The translations under genes were made by a program, and so were the position numbers. This document shows, in pieces, positions 4,428-62,130 of a stretch of DNA of 64,000 bases. How positions within the stretch are numbered: position 1 is the first letter of the stretch; every line of letters begins with the position of its first letter. Source of the DNA: a phage; the NCBI GenBank assembly GCA_025611195.1, contig GCA_025611195.1_4718.1. One strand, 5' to 3'. Below the pieces are notes generated by a model. That model was not told where the DNA came from, did not search any database, and was given only the letters and a program-made list of their open reading frames with translations.

Positions 4428-5138
4428 TCACCCCCTCAGAATCGCTTCTGTTTCGCTGATCGTATCCGCAGGATAAACCAAACTACTATCGATTGCGTTA
4501 TTCACGTAACCACCCATTAAGTTGGTGATGGTGTTTGTACCACTATCGATAATGTTTCGTAATCCGATGTCGATGGCTTTTAAGGTACTGCGTTCTTCAT
4601 CCGAAAGCAGACGCCATGCCCGACGACGATCGTTGGGGTCACGCGTGGTGATAGACGCCAGAACAGAATAGATGCTGCTGTCTGCGTTCAGTTTAACGCC
4701 AGCCAATTTCGCTGACGTATACAACAACTGATATTTTTCTTTCTCAGTATACCACCATGGCACTTTACCGAGTGTATAGATCTCGTTATACATCAGCCAT
4801 GGGAAAGAGTTTCGCATCACGACGTCGGTCGACACCAACACCGTGTCACCAGGAAGAAATACGAACTCGTAAAACGGCTGACCATCCATGGTAATCTCAC
4901 GGATGTCAGACGGGTCGATATGGAGCTGGGTCAATGCGTGGCTGACACCATACTGACCATCAGGAAGAATAATCGGGCAGCACGCACAAACCCGGTTCTC
5001 ACTCCCGATGATAGATAAACCCAATCCCTCGTAACGGACGGGCGTCAGAATCGAACACCCGCCACGAGTAACAACAGATTTATCTTCTTGTATGTCCCAG
5101 TCCGCAAGCACCGCAGCACCGTTGCGGACAAGCGCCAT
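4428..5138 (-). CDS. hypothetical protein (236 aa)
   Basis: ORF tightly packed in minus-strand operon. Confidence 0.5.
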   Translation of the reverse strand: MALVRNGAAVLADWDIQEDKSVVTRGGCSILTPVRYEGLGLSIIGSENRVCACCPIILPDGQYGVSHALTQLHIDPSDIREITMDGQPFYEFVFLPGDTVLVSTDVVMRNSFPWLMYNEIYTLGKVPWWYTEKEKYQLLYTSAKLAGVKLNADSSIYSVLASITTRDPNDRRRAWRLLSDEERSTLKAIDIGLRNIIDSGTNTITNLMGGYVNNAIDSSLVYPADTISETEAILRG

Positions 5139-6895: not shown

Positions 6896-6997
6896 TCACT
6901 TTTCCTTTTTAATGTCAAAGCATCGCATTCTTGACATGCGTCAAGAAGGTATTGCGTTCAGCGAAATAAACGAGCAGGGGCATGACGCCCCATGCTC

Positions 6998-9900
6998 TTA
7001 TTTAGCGTCGTTAAAGTAAATATCAACAGCTCGTTCCGTTGCGTAGAGGAGACCAAGATTCACAGTCCCAACCACTTCCGGTGAACCGATGATACGGTTA
7101 GCGATACTGGTACCACTGAAGATAGCATCAAGGGTGTGCCCGTCTTCGGTTTTGTTCACACCATGACCCACGGAAGAGACAACGGATTTCGCTTGTGCTG
7201 CGAAGGTACCTTTATCACCCATCCCCGCACCAAGGTCGTAACGCATGAAAATACGGATGGCGATCTGGTTCTCGCCTAACGGATTACCGTCTATTCTCAC
7301 GTTACTGTTATTGATACGCCCCGTTGTTGCTTCGTTGAGTTTCAGTTCCTTGACACGTTTAGCTCGCGCTTTATCCGCATCGCCGACGAGCGCCGCCATG
7401 GTTTCACTCATATCCTCAATCTGAGCGCGGTACAGTACATCGATCTGTACAACTTCACCATGAACGTCAGCACGTGGGTTATACTGACTCATACGACGTA
7501 ATGCTTCAACGGCTTCCTGACTCTCATCACTCAGATCGGTTGCAATCGGTTCTTCCAGTGTCGCAAGGATCGTTCGCGGTTCAACGTGATCGCCGATTTT
7601 CACGAGACCGCGAATGTTGAGATGGGCGTCAACGATAAGCGTACGACTCTTAATCGATGGTGTTACGAGACGTTCAGCAAGATTGTCGAAGATATACGAA
7701 CTGTCCTCGTGGGTCTCTGGAATATCCAGAATACCGACAAGAGACAGAACACCAGCGCGCCAAACAACCTGACCTGGGTTCCACCAGTCGCGTTTAAAAT
7801 AAAGACGATGGAAAACCACCACATCCTGATCCTTAACGCGATCCCCGACTTTATAATCGGTAATGAGATCGTGAGGATAATACTTACCCGGTCCTTTCCC
7901 GATTATTGTCCCGAGCTGGAAAACCTCTTCCCCTAACTCTGGATCGTCGTATTGTACCGTAAGCGCAGTTTTAGTGACCTTCTTAACAACACCATCGCCT
8001 TGGGCAGCTGCTGCAAAGAGTTTACCAACACGATGCGCGATAACAGTCTCACCGCCTGTACGCCATGGTTGCACATCGTAACCTTCAGCAGCAATCATGC
8101 GGTTGTGTTGGATTCCGACGAAGACCAGACGTTTTCCATCATCACGGTCTACAGCCGGAACAGCTAACGCCGACGTACTCATTACCGATGAGATACCATC
8201 TGTCTTTTCATCGAATGGTCGTGTTTCACCATACACCGACACGATATTAGCATTAGGTGCAAGGTAAGCAGAGATACCCACATCCCCACTATCTTTCGTA
8301 CCCTCTGACACAATACCAACATCGGACTTGTCGTATTCACGATCGCGTGCGCGTCGAAGCGATGTCTTTGAACGACCCCCGATACCAGTCATCGTCGCTT
8401 CTTCACCCTGCTTGATATCCAACATCGGGTTGGTTTCATCGATCACGATGGAAGCACTGTCGTCAAGAATTTGGTTCCAGACGCTCACCGGACTGATTGA
8501 GATCTTCTGTCGGTTGCCTTGGCTGCTGTTCTCATTCTGACGTATAGCACCAACCAGGTCCTTATACACCAATTCAGCGAACTTATCGTACGTTTTAAAA
8601 CGTTGGTAGTTCACATCGTTCGTGTTAGGAGCCCAATCATCCAGAAGCAGTTCGACGGCACGCAGTAACAACATGGCGAAATCGGTAGGTTCTCCCATGT
8701 TCTGCAACAACGTACGGCTTACTGGATCAACGAAAAGACGCTCCATGAGTTCAAGTTCGCGTAAATGGCGAACCTTAAGTCCAGCCCCATCGACAACGTT
8801 AAAATAGATATCTCGATTGTCAAAAGCGCCGCGAGCGTAACCAATGTAGTTACGGTATTCGTTAAACCCACCCAGCAACAACGTCGTCATGCGGTCGTCT
8901 TTACTGAAAATCAAACTTTCGTCGTCAAAGCTCACCGCGAATTCATCTGCTGCTAAACCCATACGAGAACCGCGAGGTACCGTGCGATAGTTTGCTTTAA
9001 GATGTTCTAATAACGGAGTAAGTCCACCCAGATAACTTAGAACAATACCGACCGGAATACGTACACCCATGAATTCAAGATCGGCGGCTTCGATCGGCAT
9101 CTTAGCCGCATTGATGCCGAAGAAATCAGGGAACGTCCCTACAGGTGTTGGTGTTTGTCCCGACTGACAGATATAGAGCTGATTGCGCTCATCGATCGCT
9201 AGGAATTCGTCAGATGTGTTACGTGCGAACGTCAGGAGTCCTTCGGCTAACTGTTCGTTGAACCGATCTTCCCCAATGAACTCCGGTAGCGTTTTTATAT
9301 CGAGACGTATATCCCAATCGGCAAATTGGATTTGGGTATAATTGCGTGCAAGCACTGCGAAGTAATACGGGACTTTGACAGCCGGATCAAAGACGTTACC
9401 ACGTTTTAACGTGGTTAAGGGTGAGGACTTATCGTAATACATCGCCGTAAGTTGACGTGTTAGCCAACGACCAGCGTTATTAACGACGCGCTCTGAACGT
9501 TTAACAAACACCTTACCGTAGGCGGTACTCAACGCAACTTCGGATGACGATACCTTTCTAATAGGTTTATCGACGCGTTGTTTACGCATCCGGTACTTGA
9601 TACCGTTAACGACATAAATGCCGTCCTTACGAACCTTCGGCAACATCACCGGGAACGTGGTCGGGACACCGCCTACGGGAGCCAGTTTAATCGTGATGAC
9701 TTGATAATCTCCCATCACGTCAACAACATCTTCAACTTTATATCCCGTAACAGGGTAACCCGCCTGTTGTACCGCAACAACAGCAGCTGCGATGTCCTTT
9801 TGCATTACGTGTTCGACGTAATGTTTGTCCCACACCGCAAGCGTCGATTTACACAAGCTCTTATCGACGATAACGTCCGCTTCAGGCATAACCTTTGCGG

Positions 9901-11344
9901 GAGCTAATTTTGCGGCTTTTGGTTTGACTTCAACATACTCGGCGAGCGTGAGTCCAGAACCGTCAGGTGCTTCGATTTCATGGATGGCGTCAGCGTTACG
10001 CATCGCTGCTTTATATTGGACGCCACTTAACTGCCCCGCATCGGCCAGATCGCTCGCGCGCACCAACACCGCATCCGATAACGACTGAATATACTCACCG
10101 TGTGTTTTTGGTAACGTTGCCGCGTCAAAGACATCAACCTTTTCTTCTTCGGTATCGTCGGTAACGACTTCGAAGAGATCGTCGGTAATGTCCTGATCTT
10201 CATCAGGTTGGAAATCCGGTTGTACTTCTACCCCGGGTACTTCACGGACATCTTCGAACGTGCGTTCTACAACGGCGTTCCATGCATCAGCGTCATCGTC
10301 TTCATCCGACCCACCAACCAACTCCGCTTCTAACTCATCGGGGTCAAGAACAGTGGCCAGATCCTCACCGTTAGGAAGCACGACGTCACGATCGTCGTAT
10401 TCCGCATCCGGGTCGTCGGTAAGAATATCTCGCTCTTGACGAAGAACCTGTTCCTCTTCTTGTTTCTGTTCTTCTTCATTCGCGCTCTGCGACCACAAAC
10501 GTGTTACCGCCATCATCCAACGACGCTGGAAGGTTTCAAGTGTCGTTTTATCGAGTTCTTCCCCTTCCTTTACAAGCCCGGTACGCCATTCCTCCAGCAA
10601 GCCGAGATTCAGCGTAAAGAAGTACACACCGTCTGTAAATACAACGTTAAGCTTATCTAGCGTGGCTCTGTCTAACGAAGCCATCGTGCTGTTCTCACGA
10701 TCGGTTCCCAACCAGCGGAAGAAGTCAAAGAACGACAGCTCCTCTGGCGTGGCGAAATTCATGAGGTTGTTGCGGGTCGGTGCCTGTTGCGTGGTGCGCA
10801 TCAACGAAATCTTCGGCAATGTTGTCGGTAAACGGAACAACAAAAAGTGTTGACGATCGCTTTGCTGTGCGATTTCGTTGGCTTTCGACCAAATTGTTTT
10901 ACGTACGTTGAACCATTCATCATACCAACGGGTGAGCGTTGGACGATAGATGTACATGTGGTTAAGATGCGCGTAGTTAGCAACGATCTGAGCGTTGATG
11001 TTTTTCTCCACCGTACTTAGATCGGTAACCAAACGAAAACGACGATGCGATGCACGATAATCCAATTTCGCTCGTGGAAGTTGGAATCGTTGATCACGTC
11101 GAGGTGCGCCTTGTTTGGTTGCGAGATCATCCGCAAACGAAATCCATAGTTGAGCATTTTCTTTACTCAGCATGTATTCGTTTTCTGGAGGACCTATCAA
11201 TGATGGATCCGTTGCGGTGTAATGATAGACAGCATAACGCGGCAGCTGCAATAGCTGCACTAAACGTAATCTTGGTGATAGTAGCTCTTGGTAGCGTCTG
11301 ACACCGAACTGTCGGTAGTAATCAAGGTATTTAAGTTTTGCCAT
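6998..11344 (-). CDS. RNA polymerase beta'-like subunit, C-terminal fragment (1448 aa)
   Basis: NNAGRWLTRQLTAM resembles the beta' bridge helix (ANSGYLTRRLVDV). Roughly 100-aa highly acidic insertion. GGAG RBS lies inside the end of the upstream ORF. Confidence 0.5.
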   Translation of the reverse strand: MAKLKYLDYYRQFGVRRYQELLSPRLRLVQLLQLPRYAVYHYTATDPSLIGPPENEYMLSKENAQLWISFADDLATKQGAPRRDQRFQLPRAKLDYRASHRRFRLVTDLSTVEKNINAQIVANYAHLNHMYIYRPTLTRWYDEWFNVRKTIWSKANEIAQQSDRQHFLLFRLPTTLPKISLMRTTQQAPTRNNLMNFATPEELSFFDFFRWLGTDRENSTMASLDRATLDKLNVVFTDGVYFFTLNLGLLEEWRTGLVKEGEELDKTTLETFQRRWMMAVTRLWSQSANEEEQKQEEEQVLRQERDILTDDPDAEYDDRDVVLPNGEDLATVLDPDELEAELVGGSDEDDDADAWNAVVERTFEDVREVPGVEVQPDFQPDEDQDITDDLFEVVTDDTEEEKVDVFDAATLPKTHGEYIQSLSDAVLVRASDLADAGQLSGVQYKAAMRNADAIHEIEAPDGSGLTLAEYVEVKPKAAKLAPAKVMPEADVIVDKSLCKSTLAVWDKHYVEHVMQKDIAAAVVAVQQAGYPVTGYKVEDVVDVMGDYQVITIKLAPVGGVPTTFPVMLPKVRKDGIYVVNGIKYRMRKQRVDKPIRKVSSSEVALSTAYGKVFVKRSERVVNNAGRWLTRQLTAMYYDKSSPLTTLKRGNVFDPAVKVPYYFAVLARNYTQIQFADWDIRLDIKTLPEFIGEDRFNEQLAEGLLTFARNTSDEFLAIDERNQLYICQSGQTPTPVGTFPDFFGINAAKMPIEAADLEFMGVRIPVGIVLSYLGGLTPLLEHLKANYRTVPRGSRMGLAADEFAVSFDDESLIFSKDDRMTTLLLGGFNEYRNYIGYARGAFDNRDIYFNVVDGAGLKVRHLRELELMERLFVDPVSRTLLQNMGEPTDFAMLLLRAVELLLDDWAPNTNDVNYQRFKTYDKFAELVYKDLVGAIRQNENSSQGNRQKISISPVSVWNQILDDSASIVIDETNPMLDIKQGEEATMTGIGGRSKTSLRRARDREYDKSDVGIVSEGTKDSGDVGISAYLAPNANIVSVYGETRPFDEKTDGISSVMSTSALAVPAVDRDDGKRLVFVGIQHNRMIAAEGYDVQPWRTGGETVIAHRVGKLFAAAAQGDGVVKKVTKTALTVQYDDPELGEEVFQLGTIIGKGPGKYYPHDLITDYKVGDRVKDQDVVVFHRLYFKRDWWNPGQVVWRAGVLSLVGILDIPETHEDSSYIFDNLAERLVTPSIKSRTLIVDAHLNIRGLVKIGDHVEPRTILATLEEPIATDLSDESQEAVEALRRMSQYNPRADVHGEVVQIDVLYRAQIEDMSETMAALVGDADKARAKRVKELKLNEATTGRINNSNVRIDGNPLGENQIAIRIFMRYDLGAGMGDKGTFAAQAKSVVSSVGHGVNKTEDGHTLDAIFSGTSIANRIIGSPEVVGTVNLGLLYATERAVDIYFNDAK

Positions 11345-11347
11345 GGG

Positions 11348-12994
11348 TTAGGCTCCACGAGGTCCCGTTAAGTTGCGTAATAGGAACGCAACCGTATCGT
11401 AACCAATATCAATGTTGAATTTATTTTTACCACTTACCCAGAAAGCTCGCTTCTTGTGCGAGTTGGTAATTTCGTCAATAGCTTCCATGGAATAAAGAAC
11501 GTTAACCGAGACCGTATCACCATCAAAGTCCCCACCAAGTCCGGCAAGGTATGGGGCTGGGACAATCGTCGTTTCTACGAACGATGCATTAGGTAACCAG
11601 TCGGGGTATTCCCATGCGATAAATCGTTCATCCGTTATTGGTTCCCAGTTACTATCCAGTTCGGTTTTCGGTTTTGCGGCAACGGTTGTACGTGCGTAAC
11701 AGGTCAACGGAATGACGGATTGCATACCGGATACCGGATAACGTGTTACCATCGCAGCCAGGTTATTCCAGTATTTATATCCGGCGATGTACACTAATTC
11801 GGTATACGTGATAGGGTGAACATCCGCACCAGGCTTATTCAGCATCTCTGGAGGTAATTCACTCATGCCACGGAATAACCGAAACGAATCATTATTTACA
11901 TAGACGAGACAAAGATAACGTCCATTAACCATGATAGGTTCATTGCGCACACCTGGATCGCTTAAGGTGTTCAATAAACGTTCTATTCCGTCCCACGTTG
12001 TAAAGTCATCGATGGTGTCTGGATCAAGCGTGACGCGCTCACGTTCCATCGTTTCGGTATCGATAAGCTCAACTTCGGTAACATCACGGACAAATATTTC
12101 CTGCAAAATACCGGTACGTAACGCGTGTTGCGTCACGGGTAGGGCGGCTTTGCTCATCTGGTATAACCCTAACTGAACAGCTGTGCAAGAAGGCTGGTTA
12201 GGCGACCCTAGTACCTCCGTTGTGGGGTTAATTGCCGAAATAACGTTACGGGTTGAGTTCCAAACGCGACGTGAGCCGAACTTACCTTGGAAGATCCCTT
12301 TCTTACCCTGGAACATATCCAACAACAAAGCGTAGATATCGTTAAATGTTCTCTGTAAGCTCCAGCGTTGACCGTCGTAAACGGGATCGGAATAATCTTT
12401 TAATCCATCAGGGACGGTGTTAGAAATTGCAAGGAAACGACGATACAACTCCGTGATTTCTTGCTCGCTTTCATACCCGCCTTCTTTTACTTCTATTTCA
12501 CGTAAGCCCGCAGGTAAAACCAGTAAGTGACGGGTCATCGCTTTGAACATGTTCTCTTCGACAACTTTAATTCGTAGCTCTCGTTGAGCTGAACCCGTTG
12601 AAACGAACTTGATATCCGCGACGTGTTGTGCAAAGAACCCGTATCCTGTTTGTCCTGTTAACGCATCAGACGCAACGAAGTCGCGTTGTTCAGGATCCCA
12701 ACGAGCATACGCCTTTCCTGACATGATATCACCATAGAGGTGTTTTAGTCGAATGAGGCGGTCGTAAATGACAGGGTGCAGGATTTCAACTTTGCATTCA
12801 ATCACCGCAAATCGACGATCTCGATCTTCACTACCTGCACTACCAAAGATGGTGTAAGAATAGAAACCATCATCGTGGAAATTACCGGTGCTTGGGTCAC
12901 GAATGCTCATGCTCGTGATCTTGGGGAGAAAACGTAACTGCTGTTTATCGAGGTGCAAAATACTAATATTAAACGGCTCTCTGACTTTAGCCAT
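11348..12994 (-). CDS. RNA polymerase beta'-like subunit, N-terminal fragment with DFDGD catalytic motif
   Basis: C-terminal GGDFDGDTVSVNVLYSMEA matches beta' NADFDGDQMAVHVPLTLEA. Start placed at ATG 12994 (GAGGAG RBS) not ORF-track 13036. Confidence 0.6.
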   Translation of the reverse strand: MAKVREPFNISILHLDKQQLRFLPKITSMSIRDPSTGNFHDDGFYSYTIFGSAGSEDRDRRFAVIECKVEILHPVIYDRLIRLKHLYGDIMSGKAYARWDPEQRDFVASDALTGQTGYGFFAQHVADIKFVSTGSAQRELRIKVVEENMFKAMTRHLLVLPAGLREIEVKEGGYESEQEITELYRRFLAISNTVPDGLKDYSDPVYDGQRWSLQRTFNDIYALLLDMFQGKKGIFQGKFGSRRVWNSTRNVISAINPTTEVLGSPNQPSCTAVQLGLYQMSKAALPVTQHALRTGILQEIFVRDVTEVELIDTETMERERVTLDPDTIDDFTTWDGIERLLNTLSDPGVRNEPIMVNGRYLCLVYVNNDSFRLFRGMSELPPEMLNKPGADVHPITYTELVYIAGYKYWNNLAAMVTRYPVSGMQSVIPLTCYARTTVAAKPKTELDSNWEPITDERFIAWEYPDWLPNASFVETTIVPAPYLAGLGGDFDGDTVSVNVLYSMEAIDEITNSHKKRAFWVSGKNKFNIDIGYDTVAFLLRNLTGPRGA

Positions 12995-13239
12995 GGAGAC
13001 ACTCCTCTTTACCACCACCGGCTGCGGCGGTATCATCTGAACACACGAGAGACGTAATGGGTGACGCCATCACCCATCGCTTCCTTGCTTGAGGCGAGGA
13101 AGTTATTAGGTTACGTACCTGCCTGATTTTATCAGGTGGGCGATGTGTGAAGTTACGCTTCAACATTATCAATGCCGAAGGTAAGCTTCGTGCATCACGT
13201 TCCAACGTAACATGGGAACGTATCGAACTGGAGGTATAC

Positions 13240-26485: not shown

Positions 26486-27160
26486 TTAGCCCTCATCAAG
26501 GTTATTCTGGAGATGCATTGCGGTGAGAATAACGCCAACAGCTGTTACCGATTTTGCCTTGCTGTCTTCAGGGAGCTGCTCCAAGCTTACGGTACCTGTT
26601 TCTAACAGCATGCGGTTCATTGCGTTGAACTTCTTATCATCGCCACCACGAGCCTGCATTAACTCTCGGTTCACGTTCGGCATCGATCGTCCTAACGTTG
26701 CCTGCATTTCCGGCTGGCTCCAAGTGGAACCTTTACTATCACCCGTCGGCTGATTGGTGAGCTGGTCCTTGGTGTTGTTGTTTTTCGGAATCGATATTTT
26801 AGCGCTCAACGTTTCGGCTTGTCGGCGGTTTGGAATCAGGTACAATCTGGTTGGACGATCACGAAGCACCAATTGTCCTGTTTTCTGATCGGTGAGATAA
26901 ACGCGTTGGAAGAAAGGGAAACCGTATTTCTTACCGACTTCCAGTGCGCGTTTTATCGTCACCTCGTTTTTGTTCATGTTGGGTACCCAGATGGGTAGAA
27001 TCTCTTTCTTATCCCGACATAAACGCATATACGCATCAAACGTCTCATCATCAATTTCAGCAAAACGTTTTTTGTAAATAGCGTAGGTCGGACTCGATCC
27101 CCCCACCAGGTCTTTGATATACCCAAGAATGAATTTTTCTGCTGCAGCGCGGTTGGACAT
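26486..27160 (-). CDS. hypothetical protein (224 aa)
   Basis: ORF in minus-strand operon. Confidence 0.5.
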   Translation of the reverse strand: MSNRAAAEKFILGYIKDLVGGSSPTYAIYKKRFAEIDDETFDAYMRLCRDKKEILPIWVPNMNKNEVTIKRALEVGKKYGFPFFQRVYLTDQKTGQLVLRDRPTRLYLIPNRRQAETLSAKISIPKNNNTKDQLTNQPTGDSKGSTWSQPEMQATLGRSMPNVNRELMQARGGDDKKFNAMNRMLLETGTVSLEQLPEDSKAKSVTAVGVILTAMHLQNNLDEG

Positions 27161-54241: not shown

Positions 54242-56290
54242 TTAAATACCCTTGGTTCCTTTCACGTGATGTGCAATTTCTTCAACCATTGCACGCAGGG
54301 CACGAAGTTGTTGGTCGTGTTCATACCAACCGCCTAACAGAACCCCGCTATACACCATGGTGTCAAGACTTAACAGCCCTTTATCTGATACGTTGATCAT
54401 TTCCGGGAACTGTTCTTGAACACGCTGTGCGATAACACCGATCTTCTCGACATCAGGATCGTAGTTGTGACGGAAACGAGCGAGTCCGCTATGTGCCATC
54501 TCACGTAAACGATCACTGAAAGATTCCGGATGGTCTTTCAGATAACGGATGTCATGTTTACTGCGTTCATCAGAACGGATGTATGCGTTAGGAACATCGA
54601 TGTTGCTGTTGAAGTACAGCGCACTACCGCCACCGGCAGAGTTCCCCCAATAGAAGCTGGTTAAGATGCTACCCCCGTTACCTGTAACGTGCACCGTGCT
54701 GCCTACACGGGTTCCCCCACTACCATCAACGAAGACAAGCTTGTTCCCGCTGTAAGAACCCCAGAACAAACGGCTGTCGATGATGTTTGTTGCAGCGAGG
54801 CGAGCGTTACGTGGTGTAGAATACACGGTGTTAACATCTTGCTGTGCTTGCGCATCGGAAGCGATACCGTAGTTCTGAACATTCCCTAAGCCTACCTGGG
54901 CTTTGTTAACGGCGTGAGGGTTATCCCGACGGTTAGCGTGAGCATTAACCAGATCGCCCGCCAGTTTTTGAATAGCCCAGTTGGTAGATTGTGGCGTCAT
55001 ATAGCGGTTAGTTGCAGAACCACCTTGCGCTTCAGCTTGGTTAGCAGTTGGATAGTTCTCAACGCTTCCCAACCCTACCTGTGCTTTAGACACTTGGTGC
55101 GGGTTGTTCTTGTCGGCGATGTGCGCATTAAGCGGAACTAACGCGAAGGTCTCAATGGACGCTTTGGTGGTGTTCGGTGCCATTAATCGGTTAGCTGCAA
55201 CACCCGCACGCGCTTCTTCTTCAGAAGCCATCGGATAGTCTTGCACATTCCCTAACCCAACCTGCGCCTTGGTTACTCTGTGTGGGTTGTTGTAATCGGC
55301 TTTATGCGCATTAAGTGGAATCAATGCGAACTGTTCAATCGCTGCAACGGTACGTAGCGGTGTCATGAAACGGTTGTTCGCTGTTCCGGCTTTCGCCTCA
55401 TCATCCGAAGCGGTCGGGAAGTTATCAACGTTCCCAAGGTTAACCTGTGCTTTGGTGACGCTATGTGGGTTATCTCGACGGTTAGCATGCGCGTCGACTA
55501 GATCGCCCGCCAGTTTAGCAATCGCCCATCCAACCGTCTGTGCTGTCATGTATCGGTCAGGTGCGGTACCGGCTTCTGCCTCCGCCTTGTTTGCGGTAGG
55601 ATAGTTCTGTACGTTACCTAGTCCGACTTGGGCTTTTGTTACTTCATGCGGGTTATCGGTACGGTTAGCGTGCGCGTAATGCAGATCGGTCAGATCTTTA
55701 TCCGCTGCTTGCATGTCTTTGCGTAACTGATCGATTGCCGCCCAGAGACGGTTATCGGACGCAGCATCACCGATGAGTATTGCGGCTTTTAGCGAATAGA
55801 TCGCTAAGCAAAGATGTTCGGTACCGTAGATAGCACTAACGTGGTGGATGTGTGGTTCAGGCGGATAAAGTTCCGGTTTGTTCTTGATGTCGTCCCAGTT
55901 GATCGGACGATCGTCAAGTTTGAGTTCTTCGATAGCCTGATACAACGCATCAATAAGACTTACGTAAACACCACCGATGATACGATAGTCGTTAACTAAT
56001 GTACCCTCGATGTCATCGTTGATGATGGCGATGGCCGCACAGATTTCTTTACCAGCGTAAAGCGTAGCGTCCTGATACAAGAAAATGGGTTTGTAATCCA
56101 CGCCGCGTACCAGTGTCTTACCGGTAAGCTTTTCGGTGATAACCAGACTTTCGGTGAAGAACGGTCCGCCATCGAGGGCGTAACATTTATTCTCGGTTCG
56201 TGGAACGGTGTGCTCTTCACCAACGATGTGGTTGCTATCGAGCGTGCCGGTCCAGTCCTCGGGGTACTTCAGGGTAATTGGTGTTGACAT
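54242..56290 (-). CDS. tail fibre protein with NPHxVTKAQVGLGNV repeats and C-terminal S74-like chaperone domain
   Basis: Five tandem repeats of about 57 aa (phage tail-fibre repeat). C-terminal RSDERSKHDIRYL resembles the S74 intramolecular chaperone motif. Confidence 0.75.
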   Translation of the reverse strand: MSTPITLKYPEDWTGTLDSNHIVGEEHTVPRTENKCYALDGGPFFTESLVITEKLTGKTLVRGVDYKPIFLYQDATLYAGKEICAAIAIINDDIEGTLVNDYRIIGGVYVSLIDALYQAIEELKLDDRPINWDDIKNKPELYPPEPHIHHVSAIYGTEHLCLAIYSLKAAILIGDAASDNRLWAAIDQLRKDMQAADKDLTDLHYAHANRTDNPHEVTKAQVGLGNVQNYPTANKAEAEAGTAPDRYMTAQTVGWAIAKLAGDLVDAHANRRDNPHSVTKAQVNLGNVDNFPTASDDEAKAGTANNRFMTPLRTVAAIEQFALIPLNAHKADYNNPHRVTKAQVGLGNVQDYPMASEEEARAGVAANRLMAPNTTKASIETFALVPLNAHIADKNNPHQVSKAQVGLGSVENYPTANQAEAQGGSATNRYMTPQSTNWAIQKLAGDLVNAHANRRDNPHAVNKAQVGLGNVQNYGIASDAQAQQDVNTVYSTPRNARLAATNIIDSRLFWGSYSGNKLVFVDGSGGTRVGSTVHVTGNGGSILTSFYWGNSAGGGSALYFNSNIDVPNAYIRSDERSKHDIRYLKDHPESFSDRLREMAHSGLARFRHNYDPDVEKIGVIAQRVQEQFPEMINVSDKGLLSLDTMVYSGVLLGGWYEHDQQLRALRAMVEEIAHHVKGTKGI
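54850..55660 (-). repeat. intragenic tandem repeats encoding NPHxVTKAQVGLGNV modules
   Basis: Five units of about 170 nt; recurring DNA blocks such as TTCCCTAACCCAACCTG.GCTTTGGT.AC. Confidence 0.7.
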
Positions 56291-59976: not shown

Positions 59977-62130
59977 TTATAACGTTTCGAAGTCTTTTGC
60001 CTTGATGACCGCGTTGAAGTTGGCAAGGAATTCCTTAAGTAATGCTTGGAAAACATCGCGGAACGCCGCGTTCGTCTTCAAGCTGGTTAAATAATCGTTC
60101 TTAAGGTAATCACTAAGCTTACCGATCTTCTGCATTGTCACGCCTTCATCGTTCTCTCCGGGTTCCTGGCTATTGATATTAGCCCACTTGATCCCTTCGA
60201 GATCGCCATCAGCAAGGAAGTTAGCTGGCGTCTCATCATCGTTAAGGATTTTGATCGTGTCGCTGGATTCAATACCACCGTAAGCTTCCAGAAGCTGGTT
60301 GACGGTCAACTTATTGACGTTGATTGAACCATTAGCACCATCGATACCGAGTCCGGTACCCGTGATAGACGTTGCTGAAAGATCGATTGGTCCGGTTAAC
60401 TTACCCCCATTGATAGGGAGCGCACCGACTTGTTCGGCTGTGTGCGTGTGATCTGCTAACGCCGCGAACGCTGCAATCGACTTGTAAGTCGAGTACGGTG
60501 TCATGTACGCCGTCTGGTTAGTCCTGTCAGCAGCTTGCACATCGGTGGCGACAGCAAAGTCCTGTACGTTCCCTAACCCCACTTGTACCTTGGTTACTTC
60601 ATGCGGGTTACTCTTATCGACAACGTGTGCTGCAAAACCATCACCTGCTAAAGCGATGATCGCTGCTTTTGTCGCAGCCGGTGTCATATAGCGGTTGGTC
60701 GCTACACCTGTTTGCGCTTCCACATCAGAAGCAACAGGGTAGTTCTCAACACTCCCCAACCCAACCTGGGTTTTCGTTACCCTGTGCGGGTTCTCGGTAT
60801 TTGCGATGTGGCTACTGAACCCTTGACCAGCCATTTGCTCGATCGCGTAACGAACAAGTATTGGTGTCATGTACTTGTTGTTAGCCTGACCGTCGATCGC
60901 TTCTTGGGTAGTAGCAACCCCAAAGTTCTGCACACTTCCCAGACCGACTTGGGCTTTTGTCACCCCATGCGGGTTATTGGTGTTACCGATATGTTCGGTT
61001 ACGGTTGGGGTGATTAACGCTGCGATAGCGGCGGCTGTGGTCGCAGGCGTCATGTATTTGTTGTTAGCAACACCCGCACCAGCTTCCCCATTAGACGCTA
61101 CACCATAGTTCTGTACGTCCCCCAGCCCTACCTGTGCTTTCGTAACAGCATGAGGGTTGTTATTATCCTCGGTATGGGTTGTTAACGTAGCGTTGACATG
61201 ATCGATGCGTGTACTTAAGCCGTCCGTGATTGCCTTGATTGCTGCTCGTACACCCGCTGGAGTCGTGTACAGATTAGTGGCTGTACCGGTAACGGTTGTA
61301 TTATCATCGGCTACACCGTAGTTCTCAACGTCTCCGAGTCCCACCTGGGCTTTGGTCACCTTGTGTGGGTTGTTGCGGTTACTGATGTGTGCGGCGGCAC
61401 TATCACCACTAAGGTTAGCGATCATCTTGCGCGTCATCGCCAACGTCATGTACAGATTTTCACCGACAGTTTCCAGATCGCTCTCAGTCGCTGTTGTGAA
61501 ATTCTGCACATTCCCTAAGCCCACCTGGGCTTTCGTAACGCCGTGGGGATTATCGCGTCGATTCTCATGCTGTACTAACGCAGTCATTGCTTTATTGAAC
61601 CCTTCTTCAAGCGGTTCTTTCAATGACTCGATTGCAGCCACCACATCGTCCCACGTCATTGTGTCGGTTTCGACATTATGTTGGTGGTTGATTGGTGGGA
61701 ATACAGAAGGAACGTCGGCAACCTTTTCCCAGAACGTAACACGAGGATCGTAAAGGTTGTTGGCTAAAACGTTAAGAATTTGTTGTTGATCAAGTGTAAA
61801 CTCACCCCCCAGTGAATAGTAGTTCAGTTGCAACTGTCCACTGAATGCGGTGTCCAACAGCATGATGGAACCGTATAATTCCAGGCCGGTCAGCGCAGCC
61901 ATGGCACGGAAGGGGTGAGTGCATAAAAAGTCAACGCCTTCTTCCAGATACGCGTTTGTTTCAGGGTTGTAGATCTTTAACCCATTACGAAAATAGGGTG
62001 CGTATTTAGGAACGAGAAAGTTAAATCCGGTCCCCGTGGAAGGACGGACAGTGACGAGTTCTTCTGGAACCCATGCGCCATCCAAATTCCCCTGCGGGTT
62101 ATACGGAAGGCGTTTAATTTCATCTGTCAT
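59977..62130 (-). CDS. tail fibre protein with six NPHxVTKAQVGLG repeats
   Basis: Six tandem repeats; N-terminal region similar in layout to 54242..56290; no S74 domain; followed by hairpin plus T-tract. Confidence 0.75.
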   Translation of the reverse strand: MTDEIKRLPYNPQGNLDGAWVPEELVTVRPSTGTGFNFLVPKYAPYFRNGLKIYNPETNAYLEEGVDFLCTHPFRAMAALTGLELYGSIMLLDTAFSGQLQLNYYSLGGEFTLDQQQILNVLANNLYDPRVTFWEKVADVPSVFPPINHQHNVETDTMTWDDVVAAIESLKEPLEEGFNKAMTALVQHENRRDNPHGVTKAQVGLGNVQNFTTATESDLETVGENLYMTLAMTRKMIANLSGDSAAAHISNRNNPHKVTKAQVGLGDVENYGVADDNTTVTGTATNLYTTPAGVRAAIKAITDGLSTRIDHVNATLTTHTEDNNNPHAVTKAQVGLGDVQNYGVASNGEAGAGVANNKYMTPATTAAAIAALITPTVTEHIGNTNNPHGVTKAQVGLGSVQNFGVATTQEAIDGQANNKYMTPILVRYAIEQMAGQGFSSHIANTENPHRVTKTQVGLGSVENYPVASDVEAQTGVATNRYMTPAATKAAIIALAGDGFAAHVVDKSNPHEVTKVQVGLGNVQDFAVATDVQAADRTNQTAYMTPYSTYKSIAAFAALADHTHTAEQVGALPINGGKLTGPIDLSATSITGTGLGIDGANGSINVNKLTVNQLLEAYGGIESSDTIKILNDDETPANFLADGDLEGIKWANINSQEPGENDEGVTMQKIGKLSDYLKNDYLTSLKTNAAFRDVFQALLKEFLANFNAVIKAKDFETL
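60500..61560 (-). repeat. intragenic tandem repeats encoding NPHxVTKAQVGLG modules
   Basis: Six units, homologous at DNA level to those in 54850..55660. Confidence 0.7.

Follow-up and report, generated by a model that had tools for sequence, protein, structure and literature searches.

The Escherichia phage Goslar is a nucleus-forming jumbo phage of the family Chimalliviridae. Five subunits of its virion RNA polymerase (vRNAP), gp78, gp196, gp205, gp207, and gp210, have been reported, and all were detected in virions by mass spectrometry, with similar estimated copy numbers for gp205 and gp207 (~5 to 12 and 9 to 21 per virion, respectively) (10.64898/2026.04.21.720040). In phage SPN3US, gp240 (59.6 kDa) and gp241 (159 kDa) are called beta-prime-N and betaN, respectively; the two proteins peaked in separate slices after sodium dodecyl sulfate-polyacrylamide gel electrophoresis, and the five vRNAP subunits were co-dependent for packaging (PMC5694885). 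The phiKZ protein gp178 has been treated as an RpoB homolog, its residue D1072 aligning with D675 of Escherichia coli RpoB (10.1101/2023.09.30.560319). Here we describe the equivalent pair of open reading frames (ORFs) on a 64,000-nucleotide (nt) stretch of phage DNA (contig GCA_025611195.1_4718.1 of GenBank assembly GCA_025611195.1), which was analyzed as a whole and is called the window below. The pair occupies positions 6998 to 12994 of the window and consists of ORF1, of 548 amino acids (aa), and ORF2, of 1448 aa.

A preliminary description of this DNA, made from the letters alone, had regarded the two ORFs as one RNA polymerase (RNAP) beta-prime homolog split in two, and had offered two explanations: genuinely separate subunits or occasional readthrough of the stop codon between them. 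The evidence supports the separate subunits, as ORF2 has its own Shine-Dalgarno (SD) sequence and ATG, the shared frame is not conserved, and proteomics of relatives detected the two products individually. We are highly confident that ORF1 and ORF2 are separate genes for two different vRNAP subunits, cotranscribed and probably coupled in translation. For this reading we drew on our own results for homologies, synteny, the anatomy of the junction, and the frame, which is not conserved, and on the literature for the separate polypeptides, their packaging, and the five-subunit assembly.

The DNA of the region was 95.8% identical to the gp205-gp207 region of Goslar (NC_048170). Goslar gp205 is the counterpart of ORF1 and Goslar gp207 that of ORF2, with the same gene order and strand. 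The gene neighborhood was shared with phiKZ, PhiPA3, Xoo-sp14, Eowyn, and SPN3US: upstream is a divergently oriented gene for a giant tail lysozyme, and downstream are homologs of phiKZ gp177 and gp176 and a prohead protease gene. This is the synteny expected of a vRNAP beta-prime-N gene, with a divergent lysozyme gene on one side and a beta-like gene and head protease cluster on the other. On sequence grounds, the window is assigned to a Goslar-like chimallivirus and ORF1 and ORF2 are identified as orthologs of phiKZ gp180/gp178 and SPN3US gp240/gp241. Homology and synteny thus bore out the earlier view that the multisubunit RNAP genes at this locus are split and belong to a phiKZ-like (Chimalliviridae) jumbo phage. 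The pair and its arrangement are already annotated and published and do not constitute a discovery.

The features of ORF1 were as follows.

11348..12994, minus strand: ORF1, vRNAP beta-prime N-terminal subunit, 548 aa, 62 kDa, with its stop codon TAA at 11348..11350 (PHROG 2986; profile A4)
13002..13007, minus strand: SD sequence GAGGAG of ORF1, 7 nt upstream of ATG 12994, read from the sequence
11516..11530, minus strand: DFDGD codons, catalytic Mg-binding loop of beta-prime, uninterrupted in the window

ORF1 matched PHROG 2986 (E = 3e-179) and, as a single query, weakly matched the beta-prime N-terminal subunit of the non-virion RNAP (nvRNAP) of AR9. A family profile built from 43 ORF1 sequences (A4) matched 78 sequences of the PDB, and all 60 of those listed were RNAP beta-prime-type chains, a few of them labeled gamma or simply beta. 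The top match was AR9 beta-prime-N (7s01_d; E = 4e-17), and residues 211 to 356 of E. coli beta-prime were matched with an E value of 5e-10. The alignment with SPN3US gp240 showed 34% identity (E = 5e-87). With bacterial RpoC and the AR9 nvRNAP (PDB 7S00/7S01), ORF1 has in common the N-terminal regions of beta-prime and the DFDGD loop. The profile search proposed in the preliminary description therefore gave significant beta-prime matches for this ORF, and the catalytic loop reported there was indeed found: the motif GGDFDGDTVSVNVLYSMEA is present, with DFDGD at aa 489 to 493. The statement that the ORF ends with this loop did not hold, as 55 of the 548 residues remain after DFDGD. From its sequence, ORF1 is identified as the N-terminal piece of beta-prime, and its split point after DFDGD is about the same as that of AR9 beta-prime-N. 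An alternative start at ATG 13036 would give a protein of 562 aa but has no SD sequence. The true start is likely ATG 12994, given the GAGGAG 7 nt upstream of it and the use of this ATG in the Goslar gp205 annotation.

ORF2 was of a different kind, and its features are given next.

6998..11344, minus strand: ORF2, vRNAP beta-like large subunit (betaN), 1448 aa, 163 kDa (PHROG 3148; tblastn; profile A3)
10496..11344, minus strand: phage-specific N-terminal domain of ORF2, aa 1 to 283, 25 to 29% identity across 52 homologs
10130..10495, minus strand: acidic linker of low conservation, aa 284 to 405, 47 D/E versus 7 K/R in 121 aa
9440..9481, minus strand: NNAGRWLTRQLTAM, aa 622 to 635, the supposed "bridge-helix-like" motif, not a bridge helix
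8369..8431, minus strand: NPM...GGRS, aa 972 to 992, equivalent to NPL..GPGG of bacterial beta (fork loop 2 region), aligned to Thermus beta 394 to 464
8138..8149, minus strand: DRDD codons, aa 1066 to 1069, equivalent to EHDD of bacterial beta (E. coli D675 region)
7208..7219, minus strand: GDKG, aa 1376 to 1379, equivalent to GDK..NKG of bacterial beta (double-psi beta-barrel), aligned to Thermus beta 822 to 880

ORF2 matched PHROG 3148 (E = 0). In tblastn searches it was 99% identical to Goslar gp207 and 34% identical, over 88% of the query, to PHIKZ178; the latter alignment spanned aa 1 to 1435, so that the orthology is full-length and includes the N-terminal extension and the linker. A Pfam scan of ORF1 and ORF2 returned no significant family, the proteins being too divergent, and a PDB search with the single ORF2 sequence returned only a spurious match (E = 0.28). 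Family profiles, built first from 7 and then from 52 sequences (A3), were searched against the PDB. Profile A3 matched 42 distinct PDB sequences, of which 41 were named RNAP beta chains and 1 was chain C of the AR9 nvRNAP; the best match was Thermus beta (1iw7_C; E = 4.5e-13), and no beta-prime chain was among the matches at E < 0.01. The similarity to beta fell in three colinear blocks, NPM..GGRS, DRDD, and GDKG, so that ORF2 shares the fork-loop, EHDD-like, and GDK motifs with bacterial RpoB. Because the family profile matches only beta chains and the orthology with PHIKZ178 is full-length, ORF2 is assigned by its sequence to the beta homologs and not to a second half of beta-prime. The preliminary description had recognized no beta homolog in the window and had counted ORF2 as part of beta-prime; neither statement survived these searches.

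The reading of ORF1 and ORF2 as a single beta-prime homolog cut in two, with the bridge helix in ORF2, has some superficial appeal, since ORF1 stops soon after DFDGD, so that a continuation of beta-prime might be expected downstream, and since NNAGRWLTRQLTAM superficially resembles the bacterial bridge-helix stretch GYLTRRL. We give it almost no credence. Besides the three colinear blocks of beta similarity and the lack of beta-prime chains at E < 0.01, the motif itself was not conserved in the family: W627 was its sole invariant residue among 52 homologs, and LTRQL was not conserved. The motif also belongs to a protein with matches to beta, in which it precedes the beta fork-loop motif by ~350 residues, and its likeness to a bridge helix is a chance resemblance. 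The literature places the orthologs of ORF2 with beta/RpoB and finds the other beta-prime pieces in Goslar gp78 and gp210.

Compared with bacteria, the gene order here is beta-prime-N and then beta, the reverse of rpoB-rpoC, and both subunits are in pieces. Bacterial beta lacks the N-terminal ~400 aa of ORF2, which include the acidic linker, and the literature describes packaging of the enzyme in the virion. The acidic insertion reported in the preliminary description is real (aa 284 to 405; 121 aa with 47 D/E versus 7 K/R). A linker was found at this place, with the beta core on one side and the conserved phage-specific N-terminal domain on the other, in 52 of 52 homologs, in which it was 67 to 149 aa long, had a median acidic content of 26%, and showed only 14% identity to the sequence of the window. 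The N-terminal domain (aa 1 to 283) had no match in the PDB or Pfam and has no counterpart in bacterial beta. In phage 201phi2-1, the equivalent region is a propeptide cut by the prohead protease at TFE-275, and it is retained in SPN3US (PMC5694885). As a side observation, a candidate A-x-E site for the prohead protease, ANE at aa 288 to 290, lies at the domain-linker boundary of ORF2, near the equivalent of TFE-275 in 201phi2-1. The idea that the N-terminal domain is encoded by a separable gene was dropped: by their context, two homologs thought to lack the domain were exon 1 of intron-split genes.

The arrangement of the two genes relative to each other is described by two features.

11342..11356, minus strand: junction, with an SD-like GGAG (11353..11356) inside the 3' end of ORF1, TAA (11348..11350), CCC (11345..11347), and ATG (11342..11344), read from the sequence
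6975..6992, minus strand: terminator-like hairpin just past the ORF2 stop codon; Goslar has a terminator annotated at the same place

The junction reads GGA GCC TAA CCC ATG GCA, and the two ORFs are in one frame, as had been noted earlier: they are parted only by TAA and CCC before the ATG. The spacing from the GGAG to the start codon of ORF2 is 8 nt. Because no terminator-like site was seen between ORF1 and ORF2 and a hairpin follows ORF2, the two genes are predicted to form one transcription unit. The starts of both ORFs share CC-ATG-GC(T/A)-AAA (12992-12996 and 11342-11346, minus strand), giving Met-Ala-Lys in each case, which is probably coincidental.

Junctions between the beta-prime-N and beta genes were then taken from ~80 related loci in IMG/VR, GenBank, and Logan, which gave 60 distinct junction sequences. 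The commonest distances from stop to start were 2 nt (16 junctions), -4 nt in the form of an ATGA overlap (5), 3 nt (5), and 5 nt (4); the genes abutted closely in nearly every case, which is the signature of translational coupling. The two genes were in frame in 16 (27%), in frame +2 in 33, and in frame +1 in 11 of the distinct junctions. Because a third of all adjacent same-strand ORF pairs are expected to be in frame, sharing a frame does not in itself exceed the chance level (16 of 60 versus one-third expected; two-sided P = 0.34), and the frame shared by ORF1 and ORF2 looks like a coincidence of tight coupling. Alignment of the junction across related phages, which the preliminary description had suggested as a check, thus revealed a frame that is not conserved, with 44 of the 60 distinct junctions out of frame.

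These data bear directly on the proposal that the TAA is at times read through to yield a functional beta-prime-N/beta fusion of ~2000 aa beside the separate subunits. The geometry invites it, with one stop codon and one sense codon between two in-frame ORFs, and the junction TAACCCATG was identical in three other Goslar-like genomes (L006 to L008, Goslar included). TAA-CCC/TCC-ATG-like junctions also occurred in a few more distant lineages (L015 and L043, and L042 with extra stops). On the other side, the out-of-frame junctions included that of the nearest non-Goslar relative (60% aa identity), which has GAGGAACTAAAATG (...GAGGAACTAA-A-ATG) with a 1-nt gap, and at least two in-frame stops were present in 5 of the 16 in-frame junctions. 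The stop codon is the ordinary one of this phage (TAA in 37 of 53 long ORFs of the window, and the TAAC context in 9 of 53), and known programmed readthrough in bacteria and phages uses UGA or UAG. RNA structure around the junction was not significant (z = -0.85), and ORF2 carries its own SD sequence and ATG. We therefore consider a fusion made by readthrough very unlikely and found no support for this part of the preliminary description.

Goslar is like the window in its genes, their order and strand, the TAACCCATG junction, and the 99% identical ORF2 protein, and it differs in that its beta-prime-N gene is split at DFDGD by a 2044-bp (base pair) group I intron where the window is uninterrupted. 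In phiKZ, gp180 (beta-prime-N, with DFDGD) and gp178 (beta-like) are an orthologous pair with the same order and neighborhood and with a stop-to-start gap of 2 nt after exon 2 of gp180; at ~34% identity, they differ in being out of frame and in the insertion encoding gp179 within gene 180. SPN3US gp240 and gp241 match in size (59.6 and 159 kDa versus 62 and 163 kDa here) and were shown by experiment to be separate virion proteins of a five-subunit vRNAP, which enters the virion as a complex (PMC5694885). Their genes, at 34% identity, are in frame but are separated by an 18-nt gap with two stops (TGA and TAA), and the products ran separately at 60 and 159 kDa. A likeness to programmed readthrough in phages, such as that giving the Q-beta A1 protein, lies in the in-frame coding region after a single stop; unlike that type, the present junction has TAA, an SD sequence and ATG belonging to ORF2, a frame that is not conserved, and no stimulatory structure.

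A narrower proposal confines the fusion to Goslar-like phages, with TAA-CCC-ATG identical in the four genomes seen: a few ribosomes would pass the TAA, and the resulting beta-prime-N/beta fusion would tether the two active-site halves, which might aid the nucleation of vRNAP assembly or packaging. We regard this as extremely unlikely. The opposite suspicion, that the TAA came about by an error in sequencing or by recent nonsense mutation of a once-fused gene, takes its appeal from the fact that one stop codon alone parts the two in-frame ORFs. Its probability is close to nil, as Goslar and two further Goslar-like genomes of independent assembly (L006 to L008) carry the same TAA-CCC-ATG, every one of the ~80 related loci had a stop between the genes and none had a fused gene, and a 1448-aa protein 99% identical to ORF2 represents 665 member sequences in public assemblies. 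A sequencing artifact or pseudogene, the first of which the preliminary description had named as a possible undoing of its own proposal, was rejected on the strength of the identical junction in independent genomes.

Several points weigh against the interpretation as two coupled genes for separate subunits. The beta assignment of ORF2 draws on sequence profiles, synteny, and the literature rather than on a fold comparison: two homologous-protein searches with ORF2 returned 3 to 4 proteins each, too few for a deep alignment, and an AlphaFold2 model of ORF2 aa 400 to 1448 from a 5-sequence alignment had a mean predicted local distance difference test score of 35 and was unusable. Translational coupling is read from the geometry of the junction, and the separateness of the products is carried over from the proteomics of phages other than this one. 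In addition, UAA with C as the next base is one of the weaker contexts for termination in E. coli, so that trace readthrough is conceivable.

Were the two genes coupled as we propose, ribosomes ending ORF1 at the TAA would restart, or new ones would load, at the ATG 3 nt downstream, and the GGAG within the end of ORF1 would serve as the SD sequence for the ORF2 start. Coupling would be expected to lead to near-equal amounts of the beta-prime-N and beta-like subunits. According to the literature, both join beta-C, beta-prime-M, and beta-prime-C in a five-subunit enzyme, which is packaged in the head and, once injected, transcribes early genes. Within this enzyme, the ORF2 product consists of the phage-specific N-terminal domain, the acidic linker, and a beta core running from the lobes through DRDD and GDKG.

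Two further vRNAP genes were located in the window.

4431..5138, minus strand: ortholog of Goslar gp210, 236 aa, 100% identical, reported fifth vRNAP subunit (tblastn); by synteny, equivalent to SPN3US gp244 (beta-prime-C)
26489..27160, minus strand: ortholog of Goslar gp196, 224 aa, 98.7% identical, small beta C-terminal vRNAP subunit (tblastn; PHROG 3233, "RNA polymerase beta subunit," E = 1e-65)

The latter is a second beta piece beside ORF2, in a window that had been described as having none. PDB sequence searches with the gp196 and gp210 orthologs returned nothing meaningful; the beta-C label of gp196 comes from PHROG and the literature, and the beta-prime-C label of gp210 comes from the literature only. 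The rest of beta (gp196 ortholog) and of beta-prime (gp78 and gp210 orthologs) is encoded elsewhere than in ORF1 and ORF2, and four of the five vRNAP pieces, two of beta-prime and two of beta, are present in the window. The beta-prime middle subunit, which should bear the bridge helix, was not found in a PHROG scan of 10 of the 12 other window ORFs of at least 300 aa, and its gene presumably lies outside the window.

Apart from the polymerase genes, two paralogous ORFs of ~700 aa were observed at 54242-56290 and 59977-62130 (minus strand). They each had matches in multiple stretches to many PHROG tail-fiber and virion-structural families (phrog_2163, 13857, 11029, and others) and, from these matches, look like repeat-rich fiber proteins.

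Both catalytic motifs of the ORF1-ORF2 pair are sites of group I introns in close relatives, as listed by genome.

Goslar: at the DFDGD site, a 2044-bp intron encoding gp206, between the D and F codons; at the DRDD site, none
IMG/VR L006: at the DFDGD site, a 510-bp intron at the same position, without an ORF; at the DRDD site, a 461-bp intron directly after DRDD
IMG/VR L007: at the DFDGD site, none; at the DRDD site, a ~1.58-kb intron
The window: no intron at either site

Rfam Intron_gpI matches were obtained in three relatives and nowhere in the whole window. For the DFDGD site, positions 11516-11530 of the window were compared with L001 10524-12576, L008 4766-6818, and L006 6289-6818; for the DRDD site, positions 8135-8175 of the window were compared with L006 10207-10671 and L007 10170-11793. 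Goslar gp206 is a homolog of phiKZ ORF179 and probably a homing endonuclease. The DRDD intron site is that of the PhiPA3 gp210 mobile intron (10.1101/2023.09.30.560319). The exon flanks of the DRDD intron in L006 and L007 differed from the window by ~30% (for at least 90 nt on the upstream side and ~30 nt on the downstream side), the background being ~4%, which suggests a co-conversion tract from a divergent donor. Synonymous differences also clustered at the DFDGD site, with GAC/TTT in intron-less alleles versus GAT/TTC in intron-bearing alleles (the slash marks the insertion point); the intron-less allele of the window is GGGGACTTTGATGG.

The RefSeq coding sequence of Goslar gp205 (L001 12533-14041) stops inside the intron. 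The annotated protein has 502 aa, 13 intron-encoded codons included, and omits exon 2 (FDGD and 55 aa), so that it lacks a complete catalytic loop; the spliced gp205 should have 548 aa like ORF1 of the window. The value of the present analysis is one of correction: the large ORF is assigned to a beta-like subunit rather than to the second half of beta-prime. For the Goslar-like phages, the window represents a naturally intron-free reference allele of both catalytic-center genes, which helps to correct the gp205 annotation of Goslar and to study the dynamics of introns and homing endonucleases.

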